Positions 767 to 33,337 of a stretch of 64,000 nucleotides of DNA are shown in pieces (position 1 is the first letter of the stretch; each line of letters starts with the position of its first letter). Source of the stretch: a phage; NCBI GenBank assembly GCA_024673055.1, contig GCA_024673055.1_4537.1; one strand, 5' to 3'. The translations under genes and the position numbers were made by a program. The notes under the pieces are model-generated. The model worked only from the letters and a program-made list of their open reading frames with translations. It did not search any database and was not told the DNA's origin.

Positions 767-1111
767 ATGAAAGTTTGGATAGATGATATGCGGAACCCAG
801 CCGACTATGGACAGGAAGATGCAATTTGGTTTAAAACGTCACAAGAAGCTATGGCCTTTCTCAATGATCCTGCTAAACTGTATCGAAGAGTAACCGAGTG
901 GTCTTTTGACAATGATTTAGGTATGGAGTCAGACCAAGATGGGTATGATGTTTTCCTGCACCTGGAAGAACTTCTGGCGTTTGGTAAACCTTGCTTTGGT
1001 TCACCTACCATTTTCGTGCATACTTCTAATCCCGCCGCTGGGGATAAATTCATGCTTGCAAAAGAATCCATGCTGCGTTATGGTATTAAAATGATTCGTG
1101 TGCACTACTAA
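767..1111 (+). CDS. hypothetical protein
   Basis: 114-aa ORF with AAGGAGG SD 7 nt upstream of ATG. Confidence 0.55.
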   Translation: MKVWIDDMRNPADYGQEDAIWFKTSQEAMAFLNDPAKLYRRVTEWSFDNDLGMESDQDGYDVFLHLEELLAFGKPCFGSPTIFVHTSNPAAGDKFMLAKESMLRYGIKMIRVHY

Positions 1112-1120
1112 GGAGAAAAC

Positions 1121-1264
1121 ATGCATCATTCGGTTTGGTCGGAACAAGAAGAGGACGAAGGTTACTTTATCTACCGAGAAGAAGAGGATTGGCCCGACAC
1201 AAGTAATGATCTTTTACTTCCAGACACTAGTTTTTTCGAGGATAACTTAAGAGAGGAGGATTAG
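1121..1264 (+). CDS. small acidic hypothetical protein (47 aa)
   Basis: ATG 1121 preceded by AAGGAGAAAAC; fills gap between annotated ORFs; below 60-aa track cutoff. Confidence 0.3.
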   Translation: MHHSVWSEQEEDEGYFIYREEEDWPDTSNDLLLPDTSFFEDNLREED

Positions 1265-1270
1265 GAAACA

Positions 1271-1627
1271 ATGAGTGGTATTGAAAACAACATTTGTTAC
1301 CAACCTCTTACCTGGATTGGTGAGGGTCATTATGCGCAACGTGTTATCGTCTGTGCTGCGAATAAGTATATTTTGAATAATGGTGAAGAGTTAATTATTC
1401 CTTGTGTTCGACATGCAAATCCTGTACTATATGCACAGTTAAGCGTGTTGAAAGAAGCAGGTGTAATCAACAAAACTTTGTGCACACCAGATAATCAAGG
1501 CTTTATCGATCAGTATTACAATTGGTGGAGTCGTGCGGATGCTTACATCATCGCGGAAAATGCTGACCAGATCGACCATGAGCGTAATGGTCACGACCAT
1601 GAATTATTTAGCGAGGGATTATACTAA
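1271..1627 (+). CDS. hypothetical protein
   Basis: 118-aa ORF, GAGGAGGA SD, stop overlaps next start. Confidence 0.55.
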   Translation: MSGIENNICYQPLTWIGEGHYAQRVIVCAANKYILNNGEELIIPCVRHANPVLYAQLSVLKEAGVINKTLCTPDNQGFIDQYYNWWSRADAYIIAENADQIDHERNGHDHELFSEGLY

Positions 1628-2178
1628 TGTTTATTACAAGCGATTTGCATTTTATGCATAAACGTATTCGAGAGTTTGCTCCTGAATATCGTCCGTGGGA
1701 AGATATGGACCACATGACAGAAGCCTTGATCGAAGCATGGAACAAATGTGCTACTACTCCTGGTGTTAAGATGTGGCATTTGGGCGACTTCTGTTTCGGA
1801 ACTGAAGAAGATACCCGTAAAATTGCTTCCCGTCTCCAAGGAGATATCACCTACTGTGTTGGGAACCATGACTACAGCAAACACCGAGAAGTGCTTGCAG
1901 AGTATGGAGAAGTGGTGTATTATGACGAAGTGAAATATCAGAAGCTGTTCTTCGTCTTAAGCCATTACCCTATGGCCTCCTGGAATAAACAAGGTCGTGG
2001 ATCAATCATGCTACACGGGCATTCCCACGGATCTTTCCCTGATGAAGCTTATGGTAAAATGTTAGATGTGGGTTGGGATGCACACGGAAAAATCTTGCAT
2101 TTTGATGAGATAATTTCTATGATGAGTAAACGAGATATCGTGACTGTAGACCATCACAAAATAATCAAAGGAGAATAA
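1627..2178 (+). CDS. calcineurin-like metallophosphoesterase (candidate 2',3'/3'-phosphatase of RNA repair cassette)
   Basis: Motifs SDLHFMH (DxH), LGDFCFG, VGNHDY (GNHD), LHGHSHG (GHxH) typical of metallophosphoesterases; immediately upstream of RNA ligase. Confidence 0.7.
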   Translation: MFITSDLHFMHKRIREFAPEYRPWEDMDHMTEALIEAWNKCATTPGVKMWHLGDFCFGTEEDTRKIASRLQGDITYCVGNHDYSKHREVLAEYGEVVYYDEVKYQKLFFVLSHYPMASWNKQGRGSIMLHGHSHGSFPDEAYGKMLDVGWDAHGKILHFDEIISMMSKRDIVTVDHHKIIKGE

Positions 2179-2179
2179 T

Positions 2180-3112
2180 GTGGCTAAATTTAATTGCGAC
2201 GATTTGGTTGAAAAAGGTTTAGTTCATAAGAAAACATATAAAGAAGGAGAGTATTCTGGTCTATCTGTTCTTAAGTATAAGAACAAAGTTTTCTGGGATA
2301 ACTTATGGAGCATTGATTCTCGTCTTCTAGAATGTCGCGGAATCGTTGTTGATGCTGATGACAATGTTGTTATTTGGCCTTTCACTAAGATTTTTAATCG
2401 TTTTGAGAATGGCACAGATCTACCAGCGGATGAACTTGTAGATGTGGTTCGTAAAGTAAATGGTTTTATGGCCTCTGTAGGTGTATATAAAGGTCAACTT
2501 ATTGTATCGACAACAGGAAGCCTTGAATCAGATTTTGCAAGTATTGCAAAGAATCATATTGTTTCAGAGTGTGATGACATAGAACATTTCATCAAATGGA
2601 CAGAGAGTGCAAAAGCAACTTTCCTTTTTGAAATCTGTGATCCTTCTGATCCGCATATTGTCGAAGAAGAACCAGGTGCATACTTAATTGGTGCCAGAAT
2701 TCAAAATCCTGATGGGACAAGTTTTATGTTACCTGAAGGTGCTCTTGATGGAATTGCTTCTGTCACCAAATTTAAGCGTCCTGAAGTTCATCCAATGGTT
2801 AAGTTTTCAGATGTTGTTGAAATGTCTAAACATTGTAAACACGAAGGGTTTGTAGTTCGTGAAACAAACTATCCGTTCAACTTACTTTTAAAAATTAAAT
2901 CACCACACTATCTTACTAAGAAGTTTCTTATGCGCGGTGGAGATAAAAAGTGGGATCTGATTTGGGATAATCCAAAAAATGCCAAACAAATGGTTGACGA
3001 AGAATATTACGCTTTGTTAGAATGGATTCGAAATAATTTTACGAAGATTCAATGGGCTGCTTTAAATCAGCAAGAGCGACGTGAAAAAATCGAAAACTTT
3101 TTTGGAGGATAA
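2180..3112 (+). CDS. rnlA: RNA ligase 1 (T4 gp63/Rnl1 family)
   Basis: GTG start after AAGGAG; LECRGIVVD and KVNGFMASV (nucleotidyltransferase motif I lysine) and STTGSLESDFASIAKNHI align with recalled T4 Rnl1 LECRGIMFE / KEDGSLVST / KSKGSIKSEQALMANGIL. Confidence 0.7.
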   Translation: MAKFNCDDLVEKGLVHKKTYKEGEYSGLSVLKYKNKVFWDNLWSIDSRLLECRGIVVDADDNVVIWPFTKIFNRFENGTDLPADELVDVVRKVNGFMASVGVYKGQLIVSTTGSLESDFASIAKNHIVSECDDIEHFIKWTESAKATFLFEICDPSDPHIVEEEPGAYLIGARIQNPDGTSFMLPEGALDGIASVTKFKRPEVHPMVKFSDVVEMSKHCKHEGFVVRETNYPFNLLLKIKSPHYLTKKFLMRGGDKKWDLIWDNPKNAKQMVDEEYYALLEWIRNNFTKIQWAALNQQERREKIENFFGG

Positions 3113-3517
3113 ATGAAACAACTTATCATTTTACGTGGTGTTTCAGGTGCTGGTAAATCTACAGTAGCAGAAATTATTTCTGAAGGTTATTGGCCTATCT
3201 GTGAGGCAGATCAATATCATTACACAGAGAGTGGTGTTTACGATTGGAAGCCAGAAAATGTAGGTAAAGCACACGCATGGTGTCAGGGTATTGTTCGTGA
3301 TGCTATGGCATCTAATCTTAACAAGATTATTGTTTCTAATACTTCAACCACAGAGAAAGAACTTAAACCTTATCTAGCTCTTGCTGAAGAGTTTGGTTAT
3401 CAAGTTATCTCTTTAGTTGTTGAAAATAGGCACGGTAATGATTCAATTCACGAGGTTCCACAATATATCCGTGATCAGCAAGAGAAACGTCTTCGTGGTT
3501 CACTTAAACTTCAATAA
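3113..3517 (+). CDS. P-loop polynucleotide-kinase-like protein
   Basis: Walker A GVSGAGKST at N-terminus; 134 aa; resembles kinase domain of T4 Pnk; adjacent to Rnl1. Confidence 0.55.
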   Translation: MKQLIILRGVSGAGKSTVAEIISEGYWPICEADQYHYTESGVYDWKPENVGKAHAWCQGIVRDAMASNLNKIIVSNTSTTEKELKPYLALAEEFGYQVISLVVENRHGNDSIHEVPQYIRDQQEKRLRGSLKLQ

Positions 3518-3526
3518 GGAGAAATA

Positions 3527-3853
3527 ATGCAGATTTATACAGATGATCGTAAATATGAGACAATTTTAGATGAAGATACTGGACGAATTACCGTTCTCCG
3601 TCACGGTGAAGAGTGGCGTGATGAAACGGGAGACAATTATATCTTGTCTCTGATTCATCTTATTGAACAAATGCGTGATGATTACGCTGAACTGCATTAT
3701 GAAAATGAGGCTAATAAAGTAAAATTTGAAAATGAATTAGAAGAGAAAGAATCCGAAATGGTATATCTAAAAGAAGAGATCTCCCGTTTGGAGGAAGAGA
3801 TTGATGCTCTTCAAGAAGAGATTTACGAACTCAACAACGAACTTAACGCTTAA
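3527..3853 (+). CDS. hypothetical coiled-coil acidic protein
   Basis: 108-aa ORF, AAGGAG SD; C-terminal heptad-like EEEI repeats. Confidence 0.5.
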   Translation: MQIYTDDRKYETILDEDTGRITVLRHGEEWRDETGDNYILSLIHLIEQMRDDYAELHYENEANKVKFENELEEKESEMVYLKEEISRLEEEIDALQEEIYELNNELNA

Positions 3854-3862
3854 GGAGGGATT

Positions 3863-4054
3863 ATGAAAAAAGATATCGTTGTTGTTGGTTGGCTGACTTG
3901 CCCTTGTGGTAGTAATGACATAACTGTAAACACAGAGGGTGATAAAAATTATTTATTCTACGGGGATAAAATCACTTGCAATACCTGCGGACGTGTTGGT
4001 ATTATAGAAACCGATGATTGTTGTGCTTTTGAATCTTGGGATGAAGAAGAATGA
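3863..4054 (+). CDS. small zinc-ribbon protein
   Basis: CPCG...CNTCG paired Cys motifs; AAGGAGG SD. Confidence 0.45.
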   Translation: MKKDIVVVGWLTCPCGSNDITVNTEGDKNYLFYGDKITCNTCGRVGIIETDDCCAFESWDEEE

Positions 4055-4272
4055 GTACTGCATTTTATGTTCGTAGCGGAGACGAGGATTTTTTAGCTAC
4101 TTTTGATGACGGTGATCTTGAAGATATGTATGAAGATATGCTTGACTATGCCAAAGGGCAAGGTTTCACAAGCATTGATTACATGTTGGCAACATCTACA
4201 ACGTTACTCGACGCAGATTTGGATGAAGTGTGTAACAGATTGAAAATTTCAGTTTTTAAATGGGAGGACTAA
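4051..4272 (+). CDS. hypothetical acidic protein
   Basis: 73-aa ORF overlapping stop/start with neighbours. Confidence 0.4.
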   Translation: MSTAFYVRSGDEDFLATFDDGDLEDMYEDMLDYAKGQGFTSIDYMLATSTTLLDADLDEVCNRLKISVFKWED

Positions 4273-5387
4273 TGCAACAAACAAATCAAACGCTGTATGG
4301 TAAAGATTCAAAAGGAAAACTTAAACAGTGGACAGTGTATACAGATGGTGCAGTTGTTACTGTAGCTCATGGAAGAGTAGGTGGAAAAATCACAGAAAAA
4401 TCTTATACAGCAGAAGCAAAAAACATTGGTCGCTCCAATGAAACAACACCGGAAGAACAAGCTGAACTTGAAGCTTTTGCCAAATGGACAAAACAGTTAA
4501 AGAATGGTTATTATAAAACAAAAGAAGAAGCTGAAAACCATGTTCCTTCCACACCAATGAAATGCCAGGATTATAAAGATTATCCTGAAAGGGTTGTGTT
4601 CCCTGGTTATGCACAATACAAACTGAACGGGTTACGTTCTATGATTAACATGAAAGGAGAGTGTTTATCAAAAGCTGGGGAAGTGTATAACCTGCCACCT
4701 CATTGGAAAGGTATTCCAAACTTTATTAGTGAAGTTGTTGGTCATCCTCTTGATGGTGAAGTGTTTGCTGGGTTAGGTGTCCTTAGTCTGCAACAAATTA
4801 ACAGCGCCTGGAAGAAGCATAATGCAAATACACCTTTGCTGAATTATTACGTATACGATATTCCAGTTCCAGATCTACCGTTTGAAAAACGTGTTGATGT
4901 TCTTGCTGCTCTTAAGGCAGTAGTTGAAGATTATGGTCTTAATGAGCTTATTTGTGTAGTTCATACAGAGTATATTGAAAACCAAGAACAGTTTGATGCT
5001 TTCTATGAAAAAGCTTTACTTGAGAAAGCTGAAGGTGTAGTATATCGTAATGCTCACGGAGTTTACGAATTTGATAAACGTTCTTATGACGTTATTAAAC
5101 GTAAGCCTCGCCATACCCTTGAAGTTAAAGTAACAAATTCAAAAAGTGATAAAAATGGCGATGGAGTGTTGACAGGTGAGATGGAAAATGGTAAAGTAGT
5201 CGAATTCTTAATGCGTAAAGATGCTCATGAGACTATCAATTATCGTAAAGCAGAGAATGCTTCTACCTTGATTAATCAGTTTGTTGAAATAGAGTATGAA
5301 GAATTTTCAGATGAAGGTATTCCAACAAAACCTGTTGGTGTTCGTATTCGAGAAATGATCCCAGGCACTTGGGAACCAGCAGAATAA
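4272..5387 (+). CDS. ATP-dependent ligase-family nucleotidyltransferase (probable DNA ligase)
   Basis: Start ATG 4272 after GGGAGGA; motif I variant KLNGLR (KxDG-type), LDGEV, EGVVYR, DVIKRK spaced as in covalent nucleotidyltransferases. Confidence 0.5.
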   Translation: MQQTNQTLYGKDSKGKLKQWTVYTDGAVVTVAHGRVGGKITEKSYTAEAKNIGRSNETTPEEQAELEAFAKWTKQLKNGYYKTKEEAENHVPSTPMKCQDYKDYPERVVFPGYAQYKLNGLRSMINMKGECLSKAGEVYNLPPHWKGIPNFISEVVGHPLDGEVFAGLGVLSLQQINSAWKKHNANTPLLNYYVYDIPVPDLPFEKRVDVLAALKAVVEDYGLNELICVVHTEYIENQEQFDAFYEKALLEKAEGVVYRNAHGVYEFDKRSYDVIKRKPRHTLEVKVTNSKSDKNGDGVLTGEMENGKVVEFLMRKDAHETINYRKAENASTLINQFVEIEYEEFSDEGIPTKPVGVRIREMIPGTWEPAE

Positions 5388-5396
5388 GGAGGAAAA

Positions 5397-5591
5397 ATGT
5401 TCTTAGCCATTTTAATCGTTTTCAGTGTGCTTTCTTTTTATTGTATGAATGCTTCGGAAAGCTTTCCTAAGAATTCAAAGAAAAGAACCGTATGTATTGC
5501 GATTGATTCATGTATGTCTGGAGTTGGGTATGCGGTAGTTTCTTGTTTCTTAGCTTATCATTGTGCAAAATACCTGGAGGCATTTTTATGA
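5397..5591 (+). CDS. small hydrophobic protein
   Basis: 64-aa ORF with N-terminal hydrophobic segment; SD AGGAGG. Confidence 0.35.
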   Translation: MFLAILIVFSVLSFYCMNASESFPKNSKKRTVCIAIDSCMSGVGYAVVSCFLAYHCAKYLEAFL

Positions 5592-5770
5592 TAATTTTAG
5601 CAACAATTCTTATGATGTTGATAGCCATTGCTATTGTAATTCTGGCATCTTTTCCGGCGGATAAATGGTATTTCAATATTCCACGTATGCTTGTTTTCGG
5701 TTTCGCAGGAATTTACATGGGTGAGACTGTAGTAAATATTAGCAACTTTCTAGAAAGCTATTTTAAATAA
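5588..5770 (+). CDS. small membrane protein
   Basis: GGAGG SD then ATG 5588; two predicted TM helices (IILATILMMLIAIAIVILA, MLVFGFAGIYM). Confidence 0.4.
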   Translation: MIILATILMMLIAIAIVILASFPADKWYFNIPRMLVFGFAGIYMGETVVNISNFLESYFK

Positions 5771-5779
5771 GGAGTTATA

Positions 5780-6505
5780 ATGATCGAGAATTTTTTTAAA
5801 GATATTAAATTCGATACTGAATTTTTCAAAAATGCAGCAAAGCACGTAATTGATTGGAATGCCAAAGCACGAGGTGGTGAACAACCTGAATTCACTCAAG
5901 AGTTATTTATGTCCCAAATCGGGTTCGTTCGTGAAGAGCTTAAAGAGTATGAAACAGCCGCGAAAGTAAACGATCATGTAGAACTCTTGGATGCAGCAGC
6001 GGATATTTTTGTAGTATCTAGTTATCTTACTTACATGTTCTTTGGTGAAGAACATACGCTGAATTTCTTGGACTATGCTGTAGGCGATGTTTTTACTCCA
6101 ACTGTGTATACCGATTTCGATGCTTTGGAACAAACATTTACAGAGCCAGTTCAAATGGCGCTAATGGCTGCTGGTATTATGCGTATGTCTCGTGACACTC
6201 TGATCCGTTCAAAATATCCAGAAAAGAAAGTTATTAAAGAGGTATTGAAAAGTAATGATTCCAAGTATCCAACTAAACAACAGTTGCTGAAAACTTGGAA
6301 AACTTCAGATATCGATTCAGCCATTGCACAAGAATGCGCTGCAATTGAAGAACGAAATGCCAATCGTCCAGAAGGGGCATACACTGGTGTTCATGCCGTT
6401 TATAATGAAAAACAGAAAGTGTATGTGTTCTTTGATGATAAAGGTAAGATCATGAAGTGGTCAGGTTTCATTAAACCTAATATCGCAGGTATTATTAACA
6501 AGTAA
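5780..6505 (+). CDS. hypothetical protein (possible all-alpha MazG-like NTP pyrophosphohydrolase fold)
   Basis: 241-aa ORF; segment REELKEYETAAKVNDHVELLDAAADIFVV resembles MazG/HisE EExxE...D motif; weak. Confidence 0.45.
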   Translation: MIENFFKDIKFDTEFFKNAAKHVIDWNAKARGGEQPEFTQELFMSQIGFVREELKEYETAAKVNDHVELLDAAADIFVVSSYLTYMFFGEEHTLNFLDYAVGDVFTPTVYTDFDALEQTFTEPVQMALMAAGIMRMSRDTLIRSKYPEKKVIKEVLKSNDSKYPTKQQLLKTWKTSDIDSAIAQECAAIEERNANRPEGAYTGVHAVYNEKQKVYVFFDDKGKIMKWSGFIKPNIAGIINK

Positions 6506-6561: not shown

Positions 6562-7440
6562 ATGTTTGTAAAATCTTTTAAATCTGCTCTGCCTATGGTT
6601 GTTGGTGACGATGCTTCTGTAGCATCCCTTAACAGCATTACAGATATTCCTCTGGAATTTGTAACAGCAGAAGGCTCCCAGTCACACACTATCGGTCTTG
6701 TTCGTTTCGAAGATGACTCTAAATTTGTAAAAGAGTTTTCAGATCTTGAACTGCTTAATGTAGGTCAATCTGTGAAGAAGGTAGATAAAAAGAAAGTTAA
6801 ACGTATTCTGAATGAACGTCTAGAAGAAATGCGTCAGGACATGGAGAGCGAAGGTAAAGAGTTTTATGTCGATAAAGAAGTAGTCAAAGCAATGAAGGAA
6901 GATATTGAATTTGCACTATTGCCTGAAACAGAACCTGAAGATTTCTTTAACTATGTTGTCTTGGATAAAACTACGAATCTTCTTTATGTTCTTAATGGAA
7001 GTAAAAAGGTCGCAGAAGAGATTACTTCTTTCCTCCGTTCCGTTCTGGGGACTTTCCCTTCGGTAGGTTTTAGTGTGCACGAAGAAGCTATTGTAAAAGG
7101 TTTTGGTGAATTGCTGGAGAATCATGAAGCAGATCGTATTACTCTCGGAAATTATATCAAAATGGAGGATAGCGAGGGCGTTGTTGTTTGGAGTAAAGAA
7201 TCCCTATACGAGTCTAAAGCTGTCGAACTAAAAGAGGATGGTAAAGATGTGGTTGCAATCGGTCTTGAATATGACGGTGTTGTAGATTTTGTAGTGGATA
7301 AAGAGTTTAAACTTTCTAAACTACGTTTTCCGAAATATTTTGCAGACGAAGAAGGTAGTATTGAAGCTTCAGTCCTTCTGTGCTTCAATGAGATTCGAGG
7401 TCTGATGGAAGATTTAACCAAAGCAACAATCCTTAAATAA
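6562..7440 (+). CDS. hypothetical acidic protein
   Basis: 292-aa ORF with AGGAGGA SD; no confident family assignment. Confidence 0.5.
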   Translation: MFVKSFKSALPMVVGDDASVASLNSITDIPLEFVTAEGSQSHTIGLVRFEDDSKFVKEFSDLELLNVGQSVKKVDKKKVKRILNERLEEMRQDMESEGKEFYVDKEVVKAMKEDIEFALLPETEPEDFFNYVVLDKTTNLLYVLNGSKKVAEEITSFLRSVLGTFPSVGFSVHEEAIVKGFGELLENHEADRITLGNYIKMEDSEGVVVWSKESLYESKAVELKEDGKDVVAIGLEYDGVVDFVVDKEFKLSKLRFPKYFADEEGSIEASVLLCFNEIRGLMEDLTKATILK

Positions 7441-28978: not shown

Positions 28979-29920
28979 ATGGTGTTAATTGGTAGCCGTG
29001 CATTGCAAATTCATGCTATGGACATGGGAAAAGACTTGTATCGCCCTTGTGTAGATTTAGATTACCTGTGTACAGAACAAGAGTGGGAAGAATTATTAAA
29101 AATGTTCTCTCAAGAGGAGTTTGTTGAACTTGTAGAACGTAAAGGAAACAAAGGCCATGTCAAAATGATAGCTGGTGCACATTTGGAATACGATATTGCT
29201 TCTCAAGGAGATAGCACAGAAGCTTTGATTAGTTATTGTGAAGATTCTGATGATGTTCGTCGAACTTACGCTGGACATGTTGTTGCTCCTTTAGATGTGC
29301 TCTACCTTCTTAAAATGAGTCATCGTTTTAAAAAGGATAGTCCTCACTTCTTTAAAACTATGAAAGATATTCATTTCATGCGGTCACTGGGCGCAAAGAT
29401 CCCAGAAAATCTTAAGAGTATTTATGAGTTGCGTGAGAAAGAAACATACACTTACTCTCATCCGAACTTAAACGTAAAAAGTAAAGACTTCTTTAAAGGT
29501 GATGAGGTTCCGTATGTTTATGATCATGATTCTATCCATGAAGCAATCTCGGTAATGGATGCTCCAGCATATAAATCTTATATGAAAGATGGAAGTGAAG
29601 TTATGACCAGCAAAGAAAAGTTTTTTGCTCAACCAAAACATGTGCGCCTGTTAGGTGTTTATGAAGAAGCGTGTGTTTTGGCTTTGGAACGTTCACAAAT
29701 CCCTTTCGGTGAAGAGATCGGAGGTCCAACCCCTAAGCAAAGTTTTATAATGGCTTTATCTAAAGTCTGCACATCCATCACTAGTGGTTGGTTTAGGGAA
29801 TATGCTTGGGAAAACTTTTATGTTGTTACTAAGCTATATGAAAACATGGGCGAAAACGATTATGTTGAACGTTTTAAAGCTAATCAACATGTAGTTAAGC
29901 CTTTTGAAGGAGGTTATTAA
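28979..29920 (+). CDS. hypothetical protein (possible minimal nucleotidyltransferase fold)
   Basis: 313-aa ORF; N-terminal LIGSRAL...DLD loosely resembles pol-beta-type NTase GS...DxD; weak. Confidence 0.45.
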   Translation: MVLIGSRALQIHAMDMGKDLYRPCVDLDYLCTEQEWEELLKMFSQEEFVELVERKGNKGHVKMIAGAHLEYDIASQGDSTEALISYCEDSDDVRRTYAGHVVAPLDVLYLLKMSHRFKKDSPHFFKTMKDIHFMRSLGAKIPENLKSIYELREKETYTYSHPNLNVKSKDFFKGDEVPYVYDHDSIHEAISVMDAPAYKSYMKDGSEVMTSKEKFFAQPKHVRLLGVYEEACVLALERSQIPFGEEIGGPTPKQSFIMALSKVCTSITSGWFREYAWENFYVVTKLYENMGENDYVERFKANQHVVKPFEGGY

Positions 29921-29921
29921 T

Positions 29922-30317
29922 ATGTGTGGATATCTTTCAGAAAGTTATTTCAAAGTGACCCATGAGGATTTAGAAAAAGCACGATTGAAACTGACAGCTA
30001 TTATTGAATACTCTAATACTGTTGATCACAGATTAAAGACTACTAAAGTATCTGTTCCTTGTTGGTTAGGTTTACGGCATAAAACAATGTCTCAGCATGA
30101 CCATGTTGTTCGAGAGATGCATGGTTGGTGTTGGTTTCACGATGTGGCTCTGCATTTTGGTTATATTACAGAAGAAGAGCATAGATTCTGTGAACTAACA
30201 TATCGTATTCCAACCCTTCACGATTTAGATTTGTGGAAGAAAGCAAACGAGATTTTTCTTACAGAAAGTGATTGGCGTAAAGTTATGGCTTGTCTTGAAT
30301 GGAGGGGTAATGAGTAA
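29922..30317 (+). CDS. hypothetical protein
   Basis: AAGGAGG then ATG 29922. Confidence 0.45.
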   Translation: MCGYLSESYFKVTHEDLEKARLKLTAIIEYSNTVDHRLKTTKVSVPCWLGLRHKTMSQHDHVVREMHGWCWFHDVALHFGYITEEEHRFCELTYRIPTLHDLDLWKKANEIFLTESDWRKVMACLEWRGNE

Positions 30318-30993
30318 AACAGTTTTGTCTATGTTTGACGGATCTGGGATCATGGTGTTACGTTATGCCGAAGCAGGTCACAAGTGTTTTTGTGTAAACG
30401 CTGATGAAGGGGATCACGGTAAATACGAGGTTAGGATGGAGCACCCAAACATAACCTATGTGAATGCCTGGATAGATTCTACATTCAACCCTGAAGATCA
30501 TGGGATACCTAAACCCGATATTATTTTTGGATTTCCACCCTGCACTATGTTAGCAGGTAGTGGTAGCAAACACGAACGTAGCACAGAGGAATTAGATGAA
30601 GCTTTAGCTAATATTCGTGTAGTGGAAGCTTTGGGTAACAAATATAATGTTCCTTGGATGATTGAGAACCCAGTAGGTAAACTTTCAACCTTATGGCGTA
30701 AACCCGATTTTTACTTTGATCCTTATGAGTATGGTGGGTATTTGTTTGAAGAGGAAGGAAGCTTTCATCCTAAAATGCCTACCCGTGATGGGTATACAAA
30801 GAAAACTTGTATTTGGCACGGCAATGGTTTTGTTCAACCAGTGAAGAAACCAGTAGATCATATAGGCTGCTTCTGGGGTTGGAAAAGCTTAGGTGGAGCT
30901 AGTGCAAAAACAAAACAACTTAGATCACTAACCGCACGTGGTTTTGCTCGTGCAGTGTTTTTGTCTAACAATCTTCTAGATAAGGAGAAATAA
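30310..30993 (+). CDS. cytosine-C5 methyltransferase-like protein (minimal, PCT variant)
   Basis: Start ATG 30310 after GGAGG; FDGSG (motif I-like), FGFPPCTMLAG (motif IV PC(Q)-like), IENPVGKL (motif VI ENV-like); no obvious target-recognition domain. Confidence 0.45.
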   Translation: MSKTVLSMFDGSGIMVLRYAEAGHKCFCVNADEGDHGKYEVRMEHPNITYVNAWIDSTFNPEDHGIPKPDIIFGFPPCTMLAGSGSKHERSTEELDEALANIRVVEALGNKYNVPWMIENPVGKLSTLWRKPDFYFDPYEYGGYLFEEEGSFHPKMPTRDGYTKKTCIWHGNGFVQPVKKPVDHIGCFWGWKSLGGASAKTKQLRSLTARGFARAVFLSNNLLDKEK

Positions 30994-31646
30994 TGTCAAA
31001 TTCAAAACCAGTGGTTGCTTATCAAGTAGATCGTAATGATGGTGAAGGAAGTGTTGTTATTTTCAGTACACACGGTCTTGAGGCTCGTCGAAAAGGTGCA
31101 TATCGTTTAGAATGTGAGTTTGAAGACTGCACAAGCCACCGTGTCAAACAATTCGATCAATATGCTGATAAAGGCTTCGTCCCTATCAAAGCGTTACTGG
31201 AAGATGGTTGGTGGGTATATTCTGCTTTTGATTACTCAAAACTGGAGGAGTCAGCTTCGTGCGCCTCCGAGATCGAATATGATGATTACTATGACACTCT
31301 ATACCTTCCAGAATGGCTTGTCTTTTCTCCTGATGAGAGAAGTGTCTGGAAAACGTGGGAAGAAATGGAGAGACATGCGTATAGCATCAATGAAGCTTTA
31401 GATCGTAAAGCTTGGTTTATTGAGGCAGTAAAGGCGGCATACCCCCAATTCTCATTCTGTGATTTCACTGGTGGCCCAGGATACATTACACATACAGCCT
31501 CTTTTGAGTTTCCTGGTTCACGTTATAAGGGTAATGTTTATTGGGACTGGGATGAAAATAAACAACCTTCGGCTCAAGACTTCCGTTGCTATGTTTGTCA
31601 AGGTGATCAAGAAGCCCTTGACAAATACCTTGAAAGTCTGGTATAG
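30993..31646 (+). CDS. hypothetical protein
   Basis: 217-aa ORF, AAGGAGAAATA SD. Confidence 0.5.
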   Translation: MSNSKPVVAYQVDRNDGEGSVVIFSTHGLEARRKGAYRLECEFEDCTSHRVKQFDQYADKGFVPIKALLEDGWWVYSAFDYSKLEESASCASEIEYDDYYDTLYLPEWLVFSPDERSVWKTWEEMERHAYSINEALDRKAWFIEAVKAAYPQFSFCDFTGGPGYITHTASFEFPGSRYKGNVYWDWDENKQPSAQDFRCYVCQGDQEALDKYLESLV

Positions 31647-31654
31647 TGCCGATA

Positions 31655-31690
31655 TCTGAACAAAGCCTCCTGTTTCAGGGGGCTTTTCTT
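31655..31690 (+). terminator. probable intrinsic terminator
   Basis: GCCTCC-tgtttca-GGGGGC stem-loop followed by TTTTCTTTT. Confidence 0.45.
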
Positions 31691-31704: not shown

Positions 31705-32190
31705 ATGTTTCAAGTAAATGTCAATGTGCATAATAGTTACTCTGATTGTGAAACGTGTGGCTATAATTCATCTAATGTTATTCGTATTAGTGGCGATTTA
31801 GGAGAAGCTTCTTTTGGAGAAGAAGCAAGTTGCTTTAGTGGTATGGATGCAGAATGGAATGATATTGCACATTGGTTAGTGAGCAAACTAAAAGAAAAAG
31901 AGAAACCATTTCCTACTCTGCTTGATCGTTCTCTTGTGGAAGATGCAGGTAAAGCATATGCAGACTATGCGTATGCAGACGGGAAATATTTGGAAGATGA
32001 TAAGGCTAACCATTTGCTTTATGTTTACTATGAAGCTGAATCTGCCTACGATAATTATTACAGCATGTCTAACATCCTACGTCTGTTTGCAGAGTTTGAT
32101 ATTTATTTCGAAGTAGAATTTTCAGAAGATGATACTTACGAGTACAATTCTTATGATCCATTTGAGGAGGAAGAATGCCAAGACGAGTGA
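31705..32190 (+). CDS. hypothetical acidic protein
   Basis: 161-aa ORF, AGGAGGGAATATG. Confidence 0.5.
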   Translation: MFQVNVNVHNSYSDCETCGYNSSNVIRISGDLGEASFGEEASCFSGMDAEWNDIAHWLVSKLKEKEKPFPTLLDRSLVEDAGKAYADYAYADGKYLEDDKANHLLYVYYEAESAYDNYYSMSNILRLFAEFDIYFEVEFSEDDTYEYNSYDPFEEEECQDE

Positions 32191-32990
32191 TTTTTGTAAG
32201 TGGTGCAGGTTTAAGTGCAGACAGTGGGATTCGAACATTTAGAACAGACACAGATAGTGGTCGTGCTTTATGGGAAGAATATGATTTAGAAGAGGTCTGC
32301 GATATTGGAGCTTTCCAAGCAGGTTATCGTGTTAGAACATCTCCAGATCTTCCAGTGGTCGGTGGTGTAGACGAGAACGGTATGGATTTGTATGCCAAAA
32401 CACACGAATTTTATAACAAAAGACGTGTTGAGCTTAAAGATGTACAACCTAATGCTGCACATATTCAAATAGCAAAGTGGTTTAAGGAATATCCTAACCA
32501 AATAGTAAACTTGACAACAAACGTTGATGATCTACTAGAGCGAGCAGGTGTAGACAGAGATTCTGTTATTCACGTACACGGATATCTTCCTGAAGTAGTT
32601 TACCGTATGCATCCTGGAGATTACAAAACACTGGTAGATATTGGTTACAATAGTATAAACATAGATGATTATAACTGGGTGAAGCCTAATGTTGTATTTT
32701 TTGGTGAGGCTGCACCTTTGTATGCAGATATGGCTCACTTGTTCGATACTTTGACCATGCAAGATTTGGTTGTAGTAGTAGGATGTTCAAACCAAGTTAT
32801 CAATTTTAATTGGGAATTATTTCCTGCACTTAGTATGGGTACAAAAATGGTTGTAGTTAACCCTGGAGTTAATTACGAAGAAACACTTCTCTATGAAGAT
32901 CGTGGAGTTTTTGTTTACCGAGAAAAAGCTGCAACAGCCTTCAGCAATGAAGGTTTCATTAAAATGGTCGAAGACCACTTAAACAAATAA
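32175..32990 (+). CDS. SIR2-family (sirtuin-like) NAD-binding protein lacking zinc module
   Basis: FVSGAGLSADSGIRTFR matches sirtuin GAGxSxxSGIPxFR; NVDDLLERAG and HVHG motifs present; no CxxC zinc ribbon. Confidence 0.65.
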   Translation: MPRRVIFVSGAGLSADSGIRTFRTDTDSGRALWEEYDLEEVCDIGAFQAGYRVRTSPDLPVVGGVDENGMDLYAKTHEFYNKRRVELKDVQPNAAHIQIAKWFKEYPNQIVNLTTNVDDLLERAGVDRDSVIHVHGYLPEVVYRMHPGDYKTLVDIGYNSINIDDYNWVKPNVVFFGEAAPLYADMAHLFDTLTMQDLVVVVGCSNQVINFNWELFPALSMGTKMVVVNPGVNYEETLLYEDRGVFVYREKAATAFSNEGFIKMVEDHLNK

Positions 32991-32998
32991 ACCACTCA

Positions 32999-33024
32999 AG
33001 GGGGCTTCGGCCCCTTTCTTATTA
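32999..33024 (+). terminator. intrinsic terminator (UUCG tetraloop)
   Basis: GGGGC-TTCG-GCCCC followed by TTTCTTATT. Confidence 0.6.
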
Positions 33025-33310: not shown

Positions 33311-33337
33311 AAAGGCACCCAAGTGGGTGCCTTTTCT
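33311..33337. terminator. bidirectional terminator at convergence point
   Basis: GGCACCC-AAGT-GGGTGCC hairpin flanked by T-tracts on both strands between converging gene blocks. Confidence 0.6.

Follow-up and report, generated by a model that had tools for sequence, protein, structure and literature searches.

A zinc-less CobB-like sirtuin in a phAPEC8-like phage: predicted activity and proposed links to RNA repair

Positions 32,175 to 32,990 of a 64,000-nucleotide stretch of phage DNA (contig GCA_024673055.1_4537.1 of assembly GCA_024673055.1; hereafter the window, in its full length) encode a sirtuin-like protein without the cysteines of the sirtuin zinc ribbon. The question raised by this locus is whether such a protein is still an enzyme and, if so, on which substrate it would act. 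An earlier note, made from the DNA sequence, had described the gene as a SIR2-like protein lacking its zinc module and had linked it to the NADase domains of bacterial defence systems. Our analysis retains the first part of this interpretation, the zinc-less sirtuin, and abandons the second, the kinship with defence NADases. The open reading frame (ORF) encodes an apparently active, zinc-independent canonical sirtuin (Pfam family PF02146), for which we tentatively favour a predicted activity as NAD+-dependent lysine deacylase, probably for acidic acyl groups. Alignments and a structural model place it in a phage-specific branch, to which the class III enzymes CobB, Sir2Af1 and SIRT5 are the closest cellular relatives.

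Catalytic residues, fold and zinc-less ribbon

The sirtuin ORF starts with ATG, directly preceded by the Shine-Dalgarno sequence GAGGAGG. Its match to the Pfam model PF02146 SIR2 (E 1.9e-22, 80.5 bits, cut-off 24) is far above chance, and it aligns over its full length with PHROG 2162 (E 2.8e-104, residues 2–271 on profile positions 10–271 of 277). The gene and its functional segments, all on the + strand, are as follows, with the basis of each assignment in brackets:

32175..32990, +, including the stop codon: sirtuin gene, zinc-less CobB-like member of PHROG 2162, 271 amino acids (ORF, Pfam, PHROG, AlphaFold2 model)
32202..32243, +: NAD+-binding signature GAGLSADSGIRTFR, residues 10–23, including F22 and R23 of the cofactor loop (direct reading)
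32298..32300, +: C42, aligned with the acyl-pocket residue A76 of CobB (phmmer alignment)
32409..32426, +: FYNKRR, residues 79–84, with Y80 and R83 as the class III Y-x-x-R anion-binding pair (aligned to CobB FYNARR)
32514..32531, +: TTNVDD, residues 114–119, the QNxD motif with Q replaced by T115 and with N116 and D118 retained (alignment)
32571..32582, +: HVHG, residues 133–136, with the catalytic His135 (aligned to CobB HMHG)
32583..32681, +: cysteine-free counterpart of the zinc ribbon, residues 137–169, a predicted beta-ribbon (alignment and AlphaFold2 model)
32682..32708, +: KPNVVFFGE, residues 170–178, the sirtuin FGE substrate-binding loop (aligned to CobB RPHVVWFGE)
32781..32825, +: GCSNQVINFNWELFP, residues 203–217, the GTS NAD-binding loop (GCS here) followed by a clade-specific motif in place of V-x-P (position-by-position conservation in zinc-less versus zinc-containing sequences)

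The NAD-binding signature that the earlier note had read as GAGxSxxSGIxTFR is indeed present as GAGLSADSGIRTFR, and its residues G10, G12, S14, F22 and R23 are 98–99% conserved among 214 zinc-less relatives. The note had also named loss of the catalytic His or Asn as grounds for doubt; both residues are in place, N116 together with D118 in TTNVDD and H135 in HVHG, and across 299 relatives N116, H135 and G136 are 100% and D118 is ~99% conserved. Within the canonical set formed by the catalytic His, N-x-D, GAGxS and FR, only the Q of QNxD deviates: T115 occupies this position in 92% of the zinc-less relatives, Q in 82% of the zinc-containing ones. The neighbouring V117 aligns with CobB I131 in the phmmer alignment. 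The substrate-binding loop is likewise retained in the clade (F176 99%, E178 98%). Comparison with homologues of 97% identity gives a ratio of nonsynonymous to synonymous substitution rates (dN/dS) of ~0.08–0.09, indicative of purifying selection on the gene.

Among solved structures, a phmmer search places E. coli CobB first (1s5p, E 7.6e-19), followed by Sir2Af2, Sir2Tm, Sir2Af1 and SIRT5. An AlphaFold2 model built from 21 family members has a predicted local distance difference test (pLDDT) of 86.3 and a predicted template modelling score (pTM) of 0.85; its weak regions are the cofactor-binding loop at residues 20–26 and a variable insertion at residues ~50–70. When searched against the PDB with Foldseek, the model retrieved CobB-peptide complexes on top and then Sir2Af1, SIRT5 and Sir2Tm, with target-normalised template modelling scores of 0.81–0.85. 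The phage protein is thus predicted to adopt the fold of canonical sirtuins, that is a Rossmann domain and a small domain composed of helical and ribbon parts. With CobB of E. coli and Salmonella, a class III protein lysine deacylase, it has in common this two-domain fold, the GAGxS, FR, NxD, HG and FGE motifs and the residues of the class III pocket. It differs from CobB in overall sequence (~26–27% identity), in the absence of the zinc cysteines, in the changes from Q to T in QNID and from GTS to GCS, in an additional conserved motif after GCS, and in the variable insertion at residues ~48–72.

In SIRT5, the triad A86, Y102 and R105 forms the pocket for negatively charged acyl groups that characterizes class III enzymes. 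The phage protein carries the corresponding Y-x-x-R pair, Y80 and R83 (99% and 94% conserved in the zinc-less clade; counterparts Y92 and R95 in CobB), and a small residue, C42, at the position of CobB A76 and SIRT5 A86. C42 is present in 95% of the zinc-less clade. A76 has been mutated in engineered CobB crystal structures, and the C42 region aligns to wild type CobB (VEDVAT) as well as to the A76G variant 6rxm (VEDVGT).

The whole protein contains two cysteines, C42 and C204, neither of which lies within the ribbon, so that a four-cysteine zinc site is impossible and the earlier note was right in stating that the zinc-ribbon cysteine pairs are absent. The segment GYLPEVVYRMHPGDYKTLVDIGYNSINIDDYNWVKP spans from the catalytic HG to KPNV, which is where the zinc cysteines reside in E. 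coli CobB; it contains no cysteine, versus four in CobB and in jumbo-phage relatives. In the AlphaFold2 model this segment is nevertheless a ribbon, with strands at residues 136–144, 152–155 and 168–173 and pLDDT values of 90–93. Zinc is a structural rather than a catalytic feature of sirtuins (review PMC8556138), and we therefore file the phage protein as a zinc-less variant within the PF02146 family. The solved class III enzymes Sir2Af1, PfSir2A and SIRT5 possess the four-cysteine structural zinc and have known substrates, whereas the phage protein is devoid of the zinc site. Zinc-containing sirtuins of jumbo phages were found in Serratia phage BF, Yersinia phage fHe-Yen9-04 and two contigs of 279 kb (L059) and 608 kb (L060). 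They are 30–40% identical to the query and share its ribbon motif IGY, the Y/R pocket and an RNA-repair gene context, but retain the four cysteines and QNxD, neither of which the query has.

A tblastn search detected homologues in 984 of 50,697 phage records (~2%), the majority of which encode the zinc-less form. The carriers comprise T5-like Demerecviridae, rV5-like and phAPEC8-like myoviruses, Mydo-like Klebsiella phages, KVP40-like Vibrio phages and jumbo phages. The query matches the annotated Schickermooser protein at 100% identity, and its identity to proteins from T5-like, Mydo-like and rV5-like phages is 47–62%. PHROG 2162 includes the Sir2/CobB proteins of KVP40 and phiSt2 and corresponds to the distinct clade of viral sirtuins described by Iyer et al. 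(2022). With the other members the query has in common the zinc-less ribbon, T-N-V-D, GCS and NQVINFNWELFP, and it differs from them only in gene context, since it is located outside an RNA-repair module and has phAPEC8-specific neighbours.

We aligned 307 non-identical relatives, collected by a homologue search, a search of representatives at 50% identity and from 58 viral loci, and sorted them by zinc cysteines and by the residue at the Q position of QNxD:

202 sequences: zinc cysteines absent, T at the Q position
71 sequences: zinc cysteines present, Q at the Q position
12 sequences: zinc cysteines absent, Q at the Q position
9 sequences: zinc cysteines present, T at the Q position
13 sequences: zinc cysteines in either state, another residue at the Q position

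The Q-to-T change is strongly associated with loss of the zinc cysteines, in counts that lack phylogenetic independence. Further signatures of the zinc-less group are C42, GCS in place of GTS and the conserved NQVINFNWELFP where other sirtuins have V-x-P. Residues F22, R23, Y80, R83, N116, D118 and H135 and the FGE loop are conserved to ~75–100% in both groups. A rough neighbour-joining tree infers a zinc-containing root and places the query within a pure zinc-less clade of 29 representatives. The tree requires ~8 changes of the zinc state overall, which reflect either multiple losses or noise in the tree, so that zinc may have been lost once or several times. A motif scan of 185,579 bacterial and archaeal species, with one genome each, returned only five weak loci, the best having 42% identity on a contig of a Bacilli metagenome-assembled genome. 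On account of this result the zinc-less clade appears to be restricted to phages, as far as can be told from a scan that requires exact motif words.

Candidate reactions of the phage sirtuin

Which reaction would the protein catalyse? We prefer lysine deacylation because the fold, the peptide-binding FGE loop and the positions lining the substrate tunnel are still as in peptide-bound CobB. In such a reaction, NAD+ would be bound in the Rossmann cleft and the carbonyl oxygen of the acyl-lysine would attack C1' of the nicotinamide ribose, thereby displacing nicotinamide; H135 would then activate the ribose 2'-OH, and free lysine and O-acyl-ADP-ribose would be released. The acyl group would probably be negatively charged, e.g. 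succinyl or malonyl, and be held by Y80 and R83, and packing of hydrophobic and aromatic side chains would take the place of the zinc staple in the small domain. The enzyme, along with a small acidic protein encoded upstream, would be expressed from the early/middle genes of the rightward block and may deacylate host or phage proteins during infection, as an accessory, non-essential function. The NAD+ site, the canonical catalytic set and the class III anion pocket are intact and the predicted fold is CobB-like and zinc-free; it is the substrate that we infer. A deacetylase was also proposed for a zinc-less Vibrio-phage homologue on the basis of homology modelling (Skliros et al. 2016, PMC5107563).

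Several observations weigh against this assignment. The NCBIfam models of CobB type (NF040867, NF001753 and related ones) score far below their cut-offs, at best 106.3 bits versus 243 and 85.9 versus 320, and we therefore regard the protein as a CobB-like sirtuin and not as a CobB orthologue. The clade departs from proven deacylases close to the substrate and NAD+ sites, namely by the changes from Q to T, from GTS to GCS and from V-x-P to NQVINFNWELFP. Our literature search found no biochemical or genetic study of any phage sirtuin. Finally, in several unrelated phage lineages the gene is located among RNA-end-repair genes, which would suggest a role related to nucleic acids (PMC9503650).

The phage analysed here possesses an RNA-repair-type module as well, ~26–31 kb upstream of the sirtuin gene on the same strand:

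767..6505, +: complete RNA-repair-type module, not adjacent to the sirtuin gene (hidden Markov models of related loci; PF20274, PF00149, PF09511, PF13671, PF01068, PF01503)
767-1111, +: cREC, PF20274
1627-2178, +: metallophosphatase
2180-3112, +: RNA ligase of T4 Rnl1 type, 'hypothetical' in RefSeq
3113-3517, +: AAA_33 kinase
4260-5387, +: ATP-dependent DNA ligase
5780-6505, +: MazG-like pyrophosphatase
6562-7440: RdgC, following the module

In a related genome this module lies ~3.8 kb downstream of a cluster of 11 tRNA genes. To compare gene orders, ORFs were clustered across 60 loci. Iyer et al. (2022) described sirtuin genes embedded among RNA-end-repair genes, namely those for Rnl1 ligase, cREC, kinase, MazG, HAD, 2H and Nudix proteins; such an embedding is found in related loci and not in the window. 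Mydo-like and rV5-like phages display the order metallophosphatase, other genes, Rnl1 ligase, cREC, kinase, sirtuin and DNA ligase, with MazG further on. In 28 T5-like loci a HAD_SAK_2 phosphatase gene ('HAD domain in Swiss Army Knife RNA repair proteins') follows the sirtuin gene on its 3' side, either directly or past one small ORF. The zinc-containing relatives provide further cases: the 608-kb contig carries an Rnl1 ligase gene two genes 5' of the sirtuin gene, and in the 279-kb contig Thg1-like and RlaP RNA-repair genes are found within 4 kb of it. The association of sirtuin and RNA-repair genes is real across lineages and broken in the present phage.

In two T5-like phages the sirtuin gene itself is damaged. 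In DT57C (L068, NC_027356 46.5–46.8 kb), residues ~169–233 of the sirtuin are left and are fused to the last 41 residues of HAD_SAK_2, which indicates that both genes were lost together; in EPS7 (L069, NC_010583 59.8–60.6 kb) the sirtuin gene is split by a frameshift and the HAD gene is intact. Since the gene is mostly deleted in one phage and frameshifted in the other, it is accessory and dispensable for growth in at least some phages. The EPS7 HAD gene is mislabelled 'Sir2 (NAD-dependent deacetylase)' in its record. As to the surroundings of the zinc-containing sirtuin genes, region L059:7284-12642 holds a nucleoside 2-deoxyribosyltransferase-like gene, DUF4031, RlaP and a Thg1-like tRNA 5'-repair enzyme, and region L060:5582-10029 an Rnl1 ligase and an arginase-family gene (Pfam). 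In the latter region, HAD-like and P-loop kinase-like genes were recognised by eye only, with no Pfam match.

From such neighbourhoods, Iyer, Burroughs, Anantharaman and Aravind (2022; PMC9503650, section 3.7.3) predicted a KptA-like role in RNA repair. On this proposal the sirtuin would be an analogue of Tpt1/KptA that transfers the ADP-ribose of NAD+ onto an RNA (tRNA) 2'-phosphate at a repaired junction or end; in a second step, activation of the ribose 2''-OH by H135 would yield ADP-ribose 1'',2''-cyclic phosphate and 2'-OH RNA, and the reaction would complete repair by cREC, kinase and Rnl1 against host anticodon nucleases. We consider this rather unlikely, albeit worth serious attention. 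Our neighbourhood checks, made independently for the Mydo/rV5-like loci, agree with the proposal, as do the HAD_SAK_2 genes of the T5-like loci, the ligase, Thg1-like and RlaP genes near zinc-containing relatives, the joint destruction of sirtuin and HAD genes in DT57C, and the presence of an RNA-repair module together with 11 tRNA genes in this very phage. The clade-specific changes are positioned near the substrate site, the class III carboxylate pocket formed by Y80 and R83 could be re-used to hold a phosphate, and the two-step chemistry of sirtuins would map well onto the Tpt1 reaction, in which ADP-ribosyl transfer from NAD+ to an anionic oxygen is followed by attack of the 2''-OH. The likeness to Tpt1/KptA is one of proposed analogy only (PMC9503650 and our own reasoning), as these enzymes have an unrelated fold and zero sequence similarity to the phage sirtuin. 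However, the gene is unlinked from the module in this phage, where its immediate neighbours are of no known function, and early regions of large phages pack nucleotide-metabolism genes together, which makes adjacency weaker evidence than it is in bacteria. In EPS7 the HAD gene has outlived the sirtuin gene, and no biochemical test of RNA 2'-phosphate activity was found in the literature. What leads us to prefer the deacylase over a role on RNA is, apart from the closeness to peptide-bound CobB and the retained FGE loop, the strongly acidic character of the protein, whose isoelectric point of 4.83 (clade median 5.05) and net charge of -15 do not favour RNA binding. With slightly more reserve still, the clade could be the first nucleic-acid-acting sirtuin, a convergent Tpt1 and not a deacylase, engaged in phage-encoded tRNA repair in the style of yeast Trl1 against host anticodon nucleases.

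An extended form of the suggestion in the earlier note, in which the protein would act as an NAD+ glycohydrolase, ADP-ribosylate other proteins or process ADP-ribose signals to counter the NAD+-based defences Thoeris, DSR or CBASS or to take over the host, appears improbable to us. It would be compatible with the intact NAD+ site and catalytic residues, with the accessory nature of the gene, as is the case for many anti-defence genes, and with the possibility that T115, GCS and NQVINFNWELFP near the active site alter the outcome of the reaction. ThsA, DSR1/2, SIR2-HerA, SPARSA, KomC and Avs5 also have a Rossmann core and NAD+ use in common with the query and likewise lack the classical zinc ribbon. 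Yet the resemblance to ThsA, DSR and SIR2-HerA claimed in the note did not hold: a PADLOC scan at E <= 10 matched no ThsA, DSR or HerA-SIR2 defence model, Pfam PF13289 SIR2_2 gave no match at E <= 1, and the protein is built like CobB, as a single domain of 271 residues with none of the fused or adjacent partners of defence SIR2 proteins (SLOG, HerA, pAgo, STAND or a long C-terminal domain). We rejected a defence-type SIR2 on the grounds of the PADLOC result. No macrodomain, SLOG, HerA or Argonaute partner was found beside the sirtuin gene, destruction of NAD+ would work against a lytic phage, and no NAD+ salvage genes are annotated in the related genome NC_052662 at 1-50,000 and 60,000-151,202. 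The SirTM enzymes, which are encoded in macrodomain operons with GcvH-L/LplA2, have lost the catalytic His (review PMC8556138), whereas the phage sirtuin keeps H135 and stands outside such an operon. It is also very unlikely that the gene is a decayed or non-catalytic remnant, destabilised by loss of the zinc site and kept for a binding role or simply carried along as genomic baggage. The absence of the zinc cysteines and the broken copies in some T5-like phages would fit a remnant, but catalytic and NAD+-binding residues are 98–100% conserved over hundreds of diverged sequences and the zinc-less form is the majority form in phages. The ribbon retains three predicted strands with pLDDT values above 90, and dN/dS is as low as 0.08–0.09; as far as sequence and model indicate, the zinc-less phage sirtuin has evolved as a functional variant and is not in decay.

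Prior annotation and gene neighbourhood

Over 3 kb around the sirtuin gene the window is 99.5–99.7% identical to ~20 Phapecoctavirus genomes, i.e. phAPEC8-like E. coli myoviruses of the Stephanstirmvirinae such as Mt1B1_P17, phAPEC8_ev052 and Schickermooser, in which the gene is annotated as 'Sir2 (NAD-dependent deacetylase)' or 'Sir2-like protein'. Skliros et al. (2016; PMC5107563) modelled a Vibrio-phage Sir2/CobB protein on CobB, noted the loss of zinc, named T5 among other phages that carry the gene and suggested host acetyl-CoA synthetase as a target of deacetylation. According to Iyer et al. (2022; PMC9503650), the majority of viral sirtuins constitute a clade of their own in phages of proteobacteria. 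The gene is therefore an annotated member of a known phage sirtuin family, of which the zinc-less character and the RNA-repair idea have already been published. Some homologues are misannotated, as 'tail assembly protein' in Pectobacterium phage DU_PP_V and as 'DNA polymerase' in Klebsiella phage vB_Kpn_K23PH08C2. Moreover, 25 records named 'Campylobacter phage' (e.g. C11, 58.8 kb) have an rV5-like copy of the sirtuin gene, which suggests that they are E. coli phage sequences that were probably misattributed.

The earlier note had placed the gene at the end of the early module, which is a fair description of its position: only one further gene follows before the end of a rightward block of ~34 kb, where this block meets a long leftward block of small ORFs. 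In the related genome NC_052662 the rightward block starts directly after the 11-tRNA cluster; the window itself contains no tRNA genes, and the cluster of the phage lies just outside. The surroundings of the sirtuin gene comprise the following features:

~28979-29920 (L002:17980-18921), +: 313-residue protein with DUF7277 and DUF7275
30310-30993, + (with the copy at L047:7274-7999): short Dcm-like ORF, 227–241 residues, with C5-methyltransferase-like FDGSG, FPPC and ENPVG recognised by eye
31618..31647, +: sigma-70-like promoter match, TTGACA/18 nt/TATAGT with extended -10 TG, 11/12 (consensus match only)
31662-31686, +: strong terminator-like hairpin 5' of the two-gene unit
31705..32190, +: upstream acidic ORF, 161 residues, PHROG 9509 (unknown function)
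32998..33016, +: terminator-like hairpin and T-run directly 3' of the sirtuin stop codon (annotated terminator in Schickermooser)
33311-33334, both strands: perfect bidirectional terminator hairpin at the junction of the rightward and leftward blocks

The end of the 161-residue ORF overlaps the start of the sirtuin gene by 16 nt, which suggests that both are translationally coupled, and the pair is flanked by the hairpins at 31662-31686 and 32998-33016. The 161-residue protein has conserved CETCG and ASC motifs and, in most members, an EEEECQD(E/D) tail. It evolves fast, with 32–66% identity where the sirtuin has 70–97%, and, from its sequence and position, might interact with the sirtuin or regulate it. 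The hairpin at 31662-31686 begins within ~15 nt of the promoter match at 31618-31647, so that a transcript started there would begin by forming a terminator. This arrangement may be attenuator-like, or may represent the end of an upstream operon overlapping a promoter; promoter-like sites are overall no more frequent in the window than in shuffled sequence.

Between the Dcm-like gene and the sirtuin gene lie two ORFs of unknown function, and this gene order is peculiar to phAPEC8-like phages. The 161-, 217- and downstream 90-residue ORFs accompany the sirtuin gene only in these phages; the Dcm-like ORF accompanies it there as well, and in contig L047 (L047:7274-7999) it lies immediately next to the sirtuin gene. 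Pfam and PHROG scans of the 137-, 227-, 217-, 161- and 90-residue ORFs returned unknown-function families only, plus the 'DNA methyltransferase' family PHROG 757. The Dcm-like ORF has no Pfam match, its sequence search against the PDB gives only a marginal hit to M.HaeIII (E 0.081), and it is too short for a normal target-recognition domain. In every phAPEC8-like locus, the conserved 313-residue protein (PHROG 2141) is encoded 5' of the Dcm-like gene. Just outside the window, a gene at NC_052662.1 13858-14391 is annotated 'GTP cyclohydrolase II / COG3236'; we take it to be a member of the NADAR (ADP-ribose-processing) family. An ORF that is NADAR-like by eye (cluster c61) is located a few genes downstream of the sirtuin gene in Mydo-like phages.

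Implications

The zinc-less phage sirtuin provides a natural example that the small domain of sirtuins can probably fold without zinc. Its carriers include T5-like, rV5-like and phAPEC8-like phages of therapy collections. Should it remove 2'-phosphates from RNA, sirtuin chemistry would extend to nucleic acids and the missing last step of phage tRNA repair would be filled. If it is a lysine deacylase, as we favour, it would give lytic phages a direct route to rewrite host protein acylation.

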